Source of the DNA: a virus
Taxonomy: Duplodnaviria; Heunggongvirae; Uroviricota; Caudoviricetes
IMG/VR virus record: IMGVR_UViG_2529293142_000020
Reading direction: 5' to 3' (one strand)
Length of the DNA stretch: 41,055 bases
In this document: positions 15,972-17,504 of the stretch, piece after piece
Layout of the letters: each line of letters opens with the position of its first letter
Position numbering within the stretch: position 1 is the first letter of the stretch
The notes under the pieces: model-generated
The model's database searches: none
What the model was told of the DNA's origin: nothing
The model's input: the letters and a program-made list of their open reading frames with translations, nothing else
Made by a program: the position numbers and the translations under genes

Positions 15972-16301
15972 TTATGTTTTTAATAGCTTATTGTCTAGAT
16001 CGATAAGACATTGGTTGTAGTGCGCAATTTGGTCTGGTGTTAGGTTAGGGTTGGCCAGGCAGTTCGTGATGAATTTTCTGGCCGTTTTTATTTCCCTTTT
16101 CATTCTTACATCATTAAGCGTAGGCAAACCTATGTAAGCGATAAGAAGAATTACCACATGAGATAAGCCGACAGCAGCTCCAGGCGCCAATGATTTGAAG
16201 AAGGCTAATTGAGGAAGCCAGTCAAAAAGGAAATTCAATCCCGCAGTGATAAGGGTGGTAAACCATGCCTGCATTGCCAGGTAGGATTTAGTGTTCGCCA
16301 T
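15972..16301 (-). CDS. Unknown small membrane protein (109 aa, about 2 predicted TM helices); third gene of antisense operon
   Basis: Hydrophobic segments FTTLITAGLNFLF and VGLSHVVILLIAYIGLP; start abuts the upstream stop (16301/16302). Confidence 0.55.
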   Translation of the reverse strand: MANTKSYLAMQAWFTTLITAGLNFLFDWLPQLAFFKSLAPGAAVGLSHVVILLIAYIGLPTLNDVRMKREIKTARKFITNCLANPNLTPDQIAHYNQCLIDLDNKLLKT

Positions 16302-16547
16302 TCACCTTCCTGCACTTGCTTCGTTGCGAGTTTTGAGTTCGCGTAGCAGTAGCGCCAACTCTTCTGCGTCATTTTCGTTTCTAACGCTGACTTTCCTTTT
16401 AGCGGTTCTGCCTTCAGGATCGGTGTAGGTTAGTTCAATATACGCATTCGGCTTTACCCAAACCAAGAACCTAAGCACAGCATATCTGACCGTCGCTGCG
16501 ACAGCCATGAATACAGTGATGTAAAGCATAATGCTTAGGATTGACAT
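16302..16547 (-). CDS. Unknown small membrane protein (81 aa, N-terminal TM helix); second gene of antisense operon
   Basis: N-terminus SILSIMLYITVFMAVAATV then a charged soluble tail; start 4 nt from the upstream stop. Confidence 0.55.
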   Translation of the reverse strand: MSILSIMLYITVFMAVAATVRYAVLRFLVWVKPNAYIELTYTDPEGRTAKRKVSVRNENDAEELALLLRELKTRNEASAGR

Positions 16548-16550
16548 GAT

Positions 16551-17462
16551 TTAAAGTAGTTTCCTATCTGCCGCCGCTCTGTGGCGTATAACCTTAGTAA
16601 TACTATAGCGTGGTTTAGACAGCGCGCCATTTGTTTCTTTTGTTGTTTCTGTCAGTTCTACAACAAAAAGATCACCCTTACAGAATGCTGCTTGGTTGTG
16701 TTCAACCCGTTCAAGAAAAGCCTCATCTTTCATAGATGCGCTAACTTCTTCGCCATTTGGCAGGATGATATCCCAGCTTTTGCCTTGCTTGAATCGAACA
16801 TTAGCAAAATGTACATTAGCTTGGCGTGTCGTTACGTGCGTTTTCTCGACAAAGGTGGATTTTGCAGTTTTAAAACTTACTGCTTCAGCTTGCGTCACCC
16901 TGACTACCTTATGCTTCTGCTGTGAAACTGAGAACGTGGATGGTTTTTCAGTCTGCAGGGGTTTATAGATTAATTTATCCAGTTCTTTTCGGATGATTGG
17001 ACTGGTTATTAATTTTTGAATGTCGTTACTGCATTTAACCTTCTCACCATCCACTTCGATTTCTGCTGTATCTTTTTGTTCATCGACGACAATGGAGCTG
17101 ATTTTACGCCCTTTGAGCCATTCGATTATCCCGAGTACGCCACCTGCGGCAACTCCACCACCTGCAACGAGGCCAAGGGCGTTAATAGTTTTTATGCTCC
17201 CCATCACAGCAACAAGCAAAGTAAATGAACCTTCTTTTGTTGCCTTGATGTTGACTTTCGGCTCTGCTGTTTCGCCATTAATTATTTTTTCGGCGTGTTC
17301 AATCAGGGCACTAAGAGAGGTTAAGGCTTCGCCTAATGTTTTCGCGTCGATCTGATTATCTGCGTATGCCTCTCCACCGTAGGCAATTTCGATTTCTGTT
17401 ACTGGCATGTTTTCGAGTTGCTGCGTCATCAAAAGCATCCTTTGCGCAAGAGAAATAGCCAC
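16551..17462 (-). CDS. Unknown protein (303 aa) with Gly/Ala-rich hydrophobic segment; first gene of antisense operon
   Basis: Long ORF with protein-like composition; segment INALGLVAGGGVAAGGVLGIIEWL; start uncertain (GTG 17462 or ATG 17429 with AAGGA upstream). Confidence 0.6.
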   Translation of the reverse strand: MAISLAQRMLLMTQQLENMPVTEIEIAYGGEAYADNQIDAKTLGEALTSLSALIEHAEKIINGETAEPKVNIKATKEGSFTLLVAVMGSIKTINALGLVAGGGVAAGGVLGIIEWLKGRKISSIVVDEQKDTAEIEVDGEKVKCSNDIQKLITSPIIRKELDKLIYKPLQTEKPSTFSVSQQKHKVVRVTQAEAVSFKTAKSTFVEKTHVTTRQANVHFANVRFKQGKSWDIILPNGEEVSASMKDEAFLERVEHNQAAFCKGDLFVVELTETTKETNGALSKPRYSITKVIRHRAAADRKLL

Positions 17463-17474
17463 AGGATACAGATA

Positions 17475-17504
17475 ATTATGAAAAAATCACTAACGCGTAC
17501 GCAA
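17475..17504 (-). promoter_or_regulatory. Candidate sigma70 promoter for the antisense operon
   Basis: On the minus strand: -35 TTGCGT (17499-17504), 18-bp spacer, -10 CATAAT (17475-17480); prediction by eye only. Confidence 0.3.

Follow-up and report, generated by a model that had tools for sequence, protein, structure and literature searches.

A compact three-gene operon carried by an Escherichia coli lambdoid prophage encodes a large protein that profile comparisons identify as a full-length homologue of gp29 of mycobacteriophage MichelleMyBell. The operon lies in IMG/VR virus record IMGVR_UViG_2529293142_000020 (Caudoviricetes), whose whole 41,055-nucleotide stretch is called the window here. 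The prophage has the order DUF968, RusA, Q, three tRNAs, TerB, lysis genes and terminase, and genes A, B and C of the operon follow Q on the opposite strand (Table 1). On balance, and with moderate confidence, we interpret this cassette as the gammaproteobacterial, three-gene form of the anti-phage defence operon known from MichelleMyBell gp29-gp30, carried by a prophage and acting through an abortive mechanism. What was seen directly is the homology of A to gp29, the conservation of the operon and its genomic contexts. An earlier reading of the letters alone (the original prediction) had proposed a lysogen-expressed superinfection-exclusion or abortive-infection module in which two small membrane proteins accompany a component that is soluble or peripheral. 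That is a fair description of the parts, and the functional hunch was probably right: the homology to gp29 and the purely mobile contexts of the cassette support it, with abortive infection favoured over exclusion.

All three minus-strand open reading frames of that prediction were found, B and C with the extents listed in Table 1 and A as the open frame 16551..17462. The junctions are likewise as described, with 3 nucleotides between the stop of A and the ATG of B (16551/16547) and the TGA stop of B abutting the ATG of C (16302/16301). The length of 303 residues given for A is correct for the frame, which is open from a GTG at 17462, but this form is unsupported by homologues. The protein most likely starts at ATG 17429 and has 292 residues, since an AAGGA Shine-Dalgarno sequence lies 8 nucleotides upstream of that codon, the PGAP call is also 292 residues, and homologues of A are nearly all 288-300 residues long.

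Protein A matches NCBIfam NF053583 with 225.3 bits (E 1e-66; profile positions 2-291 of 292), where the curated cutoff is 60 bits. It also matches PADLOC model PDLC05015, named PDC-S42, with 179 bits (E 3.3e-53; residues 22-299), and phrog_3243 with E 2e-94. The statement that none of the three proteins could be placed in a known family was thus wrong for A; it holds for B and C to the extent that these match only PHROGs of unknown function. Judged by its profile, the family of A is large and widespread: a profile of 31 homologues retrieved about 3600 cluster representatives (50% identity) at E of 1e-3 or below and 2075 at 1e-10 or below, and among the 150 representatives listed almost all were 280-320 residues long with a full-length match.

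The relationship to gp29 was found at the level of profiles. When a 52-sequence alignment of A was compared with gp29 by hhalign, the two proteins aligned end to end over 271 columns (probability 98.6%, E 1.1e-15). A hidden Markov model of the same alignment scored gp29 at 77.1 bits, compared with 8.9 bits for the best of 2000 shuffles. In addition, gp29 itself matches NF053583 (181 bits) and PDLC05015 (E 1.6e-16). Since gp29 and A match each other by profile, both pass NF053583 and both match PDLC05015, these comparisons identify LAPAL_fam, PDC-S42, phrog_3243 and MichelleMyBell gp29 as one family. Profile methods were needed because tblastn, started from the window A, from its Vibrio homologue or from a high-GC family member, never reached the mycobacteriophages. 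One tblastn match, in a tailless Vibrio prophage, bears the depositor's DefenseFinder label MMB_gp29_gp30__gp29. A profile scan of genome contigs with alignment A1 gave six loci, a second word-indexed search with A2, the diverse alignment, brought up mainly close relatives and contributed little more, and a sequence search of the Protein Data Bank with the A profile returned nothing.

The family carries the NCBIfam name "LAPAL motif-containing putative phage structural protein". The literal LAPAL is absent from A. The protein keeps the aligned N-terminal helix but has LGEAL at the apparently corresponding place, where many members have LAPAL; the motif itself occurs in 29 of 191 collected proteins, mostly family members. 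The name under which these proteins stand in RefSeq conflicts with every context seen for A (the strand opposed to late genes, the neighbourhood of cI, islands, a conjugative element) and is likewise at odds with the homology of A to a defence protein. NF053583 and PDC-S42 describe the same protein family as A under different premises: the former is named as putatively structural, whereas the contexts of A argue for cargo or defence, and the latter is a single-gene model, whereas A belongs to a conserved three-gene operon in Gammaproteobacteria. In P0026, a metagenomic protein of 357 residues, a QueH domain (PF02677) is fused to a stretch that covers 55% of A at 94% identity. This is probably a chimera produced by assembly or gene calling, since QueH lies a few kilobases upstream in the related prophage L001.

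The functional precedent comes from the gp29-gp30 prophage defence of cluster N mycobacteriophages, which has been validated in M. smegmatis and was reportedly described by Dedrick et al. in 2017; it is the MMB_gp29_gp30 system of DefenseFinder. In the MichelleMyBell genome (KF986246), gp29 has 310 residues and gp30 has 67 with two hydrophobic helices, and both genes lie between the lysis genes and the integrase. In the presence of a MichelleMyBell prophage, phage Tweety plates 4-5 orders of magnitude less efficiently, and its escape mutants map to gp54 of Tweety (PMC8549241, a secondary source). The defence is abortive-infection-like, in that adsorption and DNA injection proceed (PMC6426606, a secondary source by authors from the same laboratory). 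A later survey states that gp29 is toxic, that gp30 is a putative membrane protein and that the mechanism is unknown (PMC11856565). The family has also been flagged independently, since the PADLOC PDC set comprises 145 defence candidates that were picked out because their genes lie within known defence systems (Payne et al., bioRxiv 10.1101/2024.01.29.577857).

The cassette resembles gp29-gp30 in several respects. Its large protein is homologous to gp29 over the full length, a gene for a small membrane protein stands immediately downstream, and the whole is prophage cargo near lysis genes; by analogy, abortive infection would be the expected mode for the cassette as well. It differs in its Gram-negative host and in having two partners in place of the single gp30, namely B, with 81 residues, one transmembrane helix and a soluble tail, and C, with 128 residues in its intact form, two transmembrane helices and two further helices. 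Neither partner can be traced to gp30 (alignments of B and C against it gave hhalign probabilities of 0.2% and 1.9%, and PADLOC had no match for gp30, B or C), so that the A-B-C partnership is analogous, not demonstrably homologous, to gp29-gp30.

The three genes have travelled together. The A-B-C triad was found at 12 further sites, in 11 related lineages and a second E. coli genome, all of them on mobile elements. The lineages are Serratia, Enterobacter, Morganella, Tatumella, Gilliamella, Pseudomonas, Parashewanella, Psychrosphaera, Vibrio, Pantoea and an E. coli-like lambdoid element; in Serratia B is present but uncalled, and in Tatumella the contig stops after B. The partners are a B of about 80 residues with one transmembrane helix, followed by a C of 115-161 residues with two, and the triad is kept down to about 26-30% identity of A. 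Mean pairwise identity is 38% for A, 27% for B and 26% for C; the two partners diverge quickly but retain their architecture. Across nine lineages the divergence of A correlated with that of B (Spearman 0.80) and of C (0.60), values that are indicative only, as the pairs are not independent. At the loci examined in Gammaproteobacteria, A is invariably accompanied by co-inherited B and C.

The contexts of the triad are diverse. In the Pseudomonas locus L010 and in L021, a lambda-like prophage from a Logan assembly (3937-6514; triad 85% identical), a CI-type repressor gene (helix-turn-helix plus S24) stands immediately upstream of the triad and points in the same direction. In L021, cro, cII, O and P are on the other side, with cIII and RecT beyond, and no plus-strand terminator was found between cI and the triad. 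It adjoins cI in Psychrosphaera as well. Elsewhere it occupies the end of a P2-like prophage, the tail end of a Pantoea prophage, the edge of an integrative island with a VapE-like primase in Enterobacter, a conjugative element beside ArdC and a coupling protein, and a variable locus of a tailless Vinavirales prophage in Vibrio. It also precedes the lysis genes of a transposable prophage; in the Mu-like prophage of Gilliamella it has lysis neighbours and is co-directional with them. At none of the loci examined was it inside a head or tail gene block. The triad is thus cargo that moves among many kinds of mobile element.

The Morganella locus resembles the window in that the triad lies on the opposite strand between the holin gene and Q, and the Q genes at this place belong to two different families. 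On the late strand, a hairpin and its T-run separate Q from the C gene there (L006, 7556-7710). The cassette is downstream of a terminator in Morganella and upstream of it in the window, which points to an independent insertion.

A confident AlphaFold2 model of A (predicted local distance difference test score, pLDDT, 82; predicted template modelling score 0.76) suggests four parts. The N-terminus forms an alpha+beta domain with a beta-alpha-beta-beta unit, and sub-threshold matches to DUF7946, which map to residues ~10-97, recur in 14 of the 31 close homologues and 17 of the 52 diverse ones. Next comes a glycine-rich hydrophobic stretch of low confidence, and an alpha+beta region makes up the middle. 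The C-terminal domain (~195-288) has the order beta1-beta2-beta3-alpha-beta4-beta5 of an OB fold and resembles those of SSB, PriB, RPA, IF1 and eIF5A; the protein ends in a basic RHR tail. The hydrophobic features noted for A and B in the original prediction were recovered by Kyte-Doolittle analysis, at residues ~69-105 of A, where the segment is rich in glycine and alanine, and at 1-31 of B. The hydrophobic maximum is family-wide (~71-105) and is followed by KGRK. Four residues are invariant in the diverse 52-sequence alignment: G67, within an EGSF motif, W219, D235 and F238.

Hydropathy predicts for B an N-terminal transmembrane helix, which is followed by a short beta-hairpin-like segment with an invariant glycine and a C-terminal amphipathic helix. 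For C it predicts a strong transmembrane helix (34-67) and a weaker N-terminal amphipathic one, and the structural model (pLDDT 73) contains four helices, two hydrophobic at the N-terminus and then two cytoplasmic. Neither protein matches Pfam, NCBIfam or PADLOC. The original prediction gave C as 109 residues with about two transmembrane helices. Its two helices, one strong and one weaker, are borne out, but the window C appears to be a copy of a 128-residue protein shortened by 19 residues through a 1-bp deletion in a homopolymer (T5, or A5 on the coding strand). All 15 of the genome matches listed span 1702 bp against the 1701-base query, and nearly all C homologues have 122-128 residues. 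The frameshift cuts into the last helix, the ancestral stop lying at about 15916-15918, and the lost tail is the least conserved and least confidently modelled part of C.

Based on these features, the defence operon might work as follows; the abortive phenotype is borrowed from MichelleMyBell, and the rest we infer. The operon would be transcribed in the lysogen from the promoter at its junction with phage DNA. B and C would restrain A or anchor it, and A would stay latent, either in the cytoplasm or on the inner membrane. Once a susceptible phage had injected its DNA, a phage product or nucleic acid would be sensed, most plausibly through the OB-fold domain of A. The glycine-rich hydrophobic segment of A, together with B and C, could then compromise the inner membrane, and the infection would be aborted before progeny are made.

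Several observations weigh against this interpretation. The details of the MichelleMyBell phenotype were taken from secondary sources, and the partners of A, as described above, show no similarity to gp30. Outside the Gammaproteobacteria, A also stands alone: in Lactobacillus phage A2 it is ORF19, with endolysin and int on its two sides, and single A genes occur in Bifidobacterium Bbif-1 and, next to a serine recombinase, in an Acidobacteria metagenome-assembled genome. The NCBIfam product name is that of a putative phage structural protein. As for the mechanism, the hydrophobic segment of A is moderate only (19-residue Kyte-Doolittle maximum 1.2-2.0), AlphaFold2 renders the glycine-rich stretch with low confidence and not as a transmembrane helix, and OB folds bind so many kinds of ligand that the fold alone cannot name what A senses. 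In the window itself, C is frameshifted and the promoter candidate is weak.

One further comparison concerns how A might act on membranes. EACC1 proteins have a transmembrane helix with a glycine patch and alpha+beta flanks, and form a pore once their inhibitory N-terminus has been cut off by a protease (Kaur et al. 2020; Evans et al. 2025 preprint). Residues 81-140 of A, comprising the glycine-rich segment and the strands that follow it, align to positions 42-102 of the 107 in the EACC1 profile (PF19953). The score of 15.5 bits (E 0.017) is under the Pfam gathering score of 23.6 bits, and the matches in 9 of 31 close homologues (best E 5.8e-5) and 3 of 52 diverse ones are all sub-threshold as well, which also counts against the proposed mechanism. 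A is three times longer than EACC1, has an OB-fold C-terminus and lacks an accompanying caspase-like protease gene; no gene for such a protease, or for any other, was found in or next to the operon at the sites examined. Since the scores stay under the threshold and no protease gene is present, the similarity is a lead and not membership. A bolder form of the defence model, which we consider doubtful, would make A a self-contained sensor-effector. In this form, detection of a phage nucleic acid or protein by the OB fold would free an EACC1-like glycine-zipper segment to oligomerise into a membrane pore without a protease, B and C would be gatekeepers or antidotes, and antisense late transcription would silence the operon at the induction of its own prophage, a built-in self-immunity.

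We also compared the cassette with the depolarising abortive infection systems RexA-RexB of lambda and gp30-gp31 of phage Sbash, each a sensor with a channel. RexA has 279 residues, and in lambda the rexA-rexB pair occupies the slot directly downstream of cI. The cassette shares with these systems a protein of about 290 residues accompanied by one or more small membrane proteins and an expected expression from the prophage, and in L021 and L010 the triad sits in the rexAB slot. RexB and Sbash gp31 have four transmembrane helices, in contrast to one in B and two in C. Homology of A to RexA was rejected, as A has no DUF4747 match. The likeness is one of genomic slot and overall logic only. Two other candidates were set aside. 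No link was found to the Tai tail-assembly-interference systems, the sole passage on an antiterminator Q concerning a different system. For a Rousset-type hotspot system of three hypothetical proteins, only the PDC-S42 PADLOC model matched, and "3HP" did not occur in the text of the paper.

Exclusion at the envelope would have an inner-membrane complex block genome entry and spare the cell, in the manner of P22 SieA, T4 Imm or Charlie gp32. B and C as small inner-membrane proteins, the hydrophobic segment of A and the position of the operon as prophage cargo opposite to the late genes would all suit this idea. We nevertheless think it unlikely, as adsorption and injection proceed in the MichelleMyBell defence (PMC6426606), gp29 is reported to be toxic (PMC11856565), and A is a mostly soluble multi-domain protein whose OB fold better fits a cytoplasmic sensor.

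The toxicity reported for gp29 without its partner (PMC11856565) bears in a different way on the possibility of a toxin-antidote or lysogenic-conversion module without an anti-phage role. A would here be a membrane-active toxin neutralised by B, C or both, and the module would stabilise the elements that carry it. Tight coupling of the genes, their joint divergence and their confinement to mobile elements of many kinds, including a conjugative element, agree with such a role. Against this stand the cut in Tweety plating with escape mutants that map to a phage gene (PMC8549241) and the independent flagging of family members inside known defence systems, and toxin-antitoxin and abortive infection roles are not mutually exclusive. 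A role of this sort in place of defence is, in our judgement, unlikely too.

The copy in the window could instead be inactive or decaying, its C gene having lost 19 residues relative to the aligned E. coli genome and the 128-residue homologues, its promoter candidate matching at 8 of 12 positions with no dedicated promoter besides, and its late switch perhaps disabled by an insertion that places the late promoter candidate 1.57 kb from the conserved leader and terminator. We regard this as rather improbable. A and B are intact, the lost tail is the least conserved part of C, the homopolymer change could be a sequencing error, and the arrangement recurs with the same junctions in other genomes, one of which has different downstream genes (see below). 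Finally, a structural or lysis-accessory function, for example as a membrane-associated lysis regulator acting with holin, is very improbable despite the NCBIfam name and lysis neighbours in the window, Morganella, the Gilliamella Mu-like prophage, phage A2 and MichelleMyBell, because the operon opposes the late genes in the window and in Morganella, never stands within a head or tail block at the loci examined, and is found in only 52 of 5426 E. coli genomes with varying late regions around it. Its other settings speak against such a function as well, since copies adjoin cI, mark the ends of prophages, or belong to a primase-bearing island, a conjugative element or the variable locus of a tailless prophage.

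Table 1 Features of the cassette and its surroundings in the window
Feature	Coordinates	Strand	Remarks
Antiterminator gene Q	15543..15902	+	119 residues, PF06530; next to the left end of the insert
Candidate late promoter PR' (TTGATG-18-TATCAT)	15871..15900	+	Overlaps the Q stop codon; same site in L015
TTATGA, left copy of 6-bp direct repeat	15904..15909		Empty site in L015 has a single TTATGA
Insert, 1566 bp	15910..17475	genes on -	Little besides genes C, B and A; limits from nucleotide-level comparison with the empty L015 site
Gene C	15972..16301	-	109 residues here, 128 elsewhere; phrog_26468
T5 homopolymer with putative 1-bp deletion in C	15977..15981		T6 in the E. coli genome aligned at nucleotide level
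Gene B	16302..16547	-	81 residues; phrog_27630; unannotated by PGAP
Gene A	16551..17429	-	292 residues, ATG 17429 (most likely start); MichelleMyBell gp29 / LAPAL_fam / PDC-S42 family
Candidate sigma70 operon promoter	17475..17504	-	-35 TTGCGT 17504-17499, 18-nucleotide spacer, -10 CATAAT 17480-17475
TTATGA, right copy of 6-bp direct repeat	17476..17481		From comparison with the empty site in L015
Conserved late leader with intrinsic terminator	17482..17577	+	Hairpin 17550-17570 and T-run

The limits of the insert could be set exactly, as L015, an E. coli prophage with the same Q allele, has the corresponding site empty: there the Q stop is followed by GTTATGA, AAAAATCACTAACGCG... and, at the end, the terminator hairpin. 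Only 46 nucleotides lie 5' of the A start and, in the intact form of C, 6 nucleotides 3' of its stop. The TTATGA repeat at the two ends resembles a target-site duplication or a microhomology join. Within 15910-17475 there is neither a recombinase gene nor a terminal inverted repeat, and a megablast search of the region against the phage collection found nothing. The AT-richness that the original prediction had judged by eye was confirmed by calculation, with a GC fraction of 0.434 in the insert compared with 0.508 and 0.492 in the 5 kb to its left and right; in a sliding scan it is 0.40-0.46 over 15600-17600 and 0.50-0.565 further left.

The cassette is present in 52 of 5426 complete E. coli genomes, and 37 of these are full-length matches at ≥99% identity. 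The same junctions recur at ≥99.8% identity in at least 15, probably 37, genomes, and in one related genome examined the downstream tRNA and lysis genes differ despite the same cassette arrangement. This recurrence, together with the different downstream genes of the one relative, argues that the arrangement is tolerated, persists and spreads.

Other E. coli prophages with this Q allele carry other cargo behind it, which makes the position a hotspot: L015 (4077-5363) has an ArtAB-like ADP-ribosyltransferase toxin with an AB5 binding subunit, and L016 (3931-6789) has a Dcm methyltransferase together with minus-strand genes for a HEPN nuclease and a DUF262 protein. The original prediction had pointed to the interval between Q and the lysis genes as a cargo slot, and the toxin and defence genes at this very position agree with it.

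A sigma70 promoter belonging to the operon had also been predicted. The TTGCGT and CATAAT elements are present, but with 8 of 12 matches the candidate stays under the scan threshold, and it is not wholly the module's own. Since the -35 element is phage leader DNA outside the insert and the -10 element spans the junction (CATAAC in the empty site), the putative promoter is a hybrid formed at the insertion junction.

On the late strand, TTGATG-18-TATCAT is the best candidate for PR'. In L015 a conserved leader of about 80 nucleotides runs from this candidate to the hairpin, directly after the Q stop and TTATGA, while in the window the insert puts 1.57 kb between the candidate and the conserved leader and terminator. 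If the PR' candidate is real, the late promoter has been split from its leader and terminator, and Q-modified late transcripts would cross the operon antisense. Either the true PR' lies elsewhere, or late transcription runs antisense through the operon, or the Q switch is impaired. A 36-residue frame at 17528-17638 (+), which PGAP calls "antiterminator" in related genomes, was considered as the remnant of a second Q. This was rejected, because the frame overlies the terminator hairpin and its sequence from 17550 on also follows a Q that is unrelated and intact; the frame is probably no gene at all.

The cassette probably represents in E. coli an anti-phage system that is already known; as far as we found, gp29-gp30 defence has been studied only in mycobacteria and has no known mechanism. 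Three findings appear to be new: the separately named entities are linked, A has B and C as obligate partners in Gammaproteobacteria, and the insertion point in the late-promoter leader is defined precisely. No paper on any of these was found, although absence from the searched literature is no proof. Joining LAPAL_fam, PDC-S42 and MichelleMyBell gp29 into one large family corrects a probably misleading "phage structural protein" name that is now spreading in RefSeq, and it suggests that the single-gene PADLOC model misses partner genes in Gammaproteobacteria. A compact 1.57-kb cassette in E. coli makes the mechanism testable in the best genetic system available, with two obligate small membrane partners, an OB fold, a glycine-rich segment and the residues G67, W219, D235 and F238 as handles.

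ARAGORN places tRNAs for Met (CAT), Lys (TTT) and Arg (TCT) at 17695-17935 (+), and related prophages have other sets at the tRNA site (Ile/Lys/Thr/Gly and Ile/Arg/Arg), the first tRNA of both related arrays being called tRNA-Ile by PGAP. The tRNAs are followed by a gene for a TerB-family protein (18079-18540, +; PF05099; phrog_632, "tellurite resistance") that is conserved in O157-type prophages and is likely another moron in the Q-to-lysis interval.

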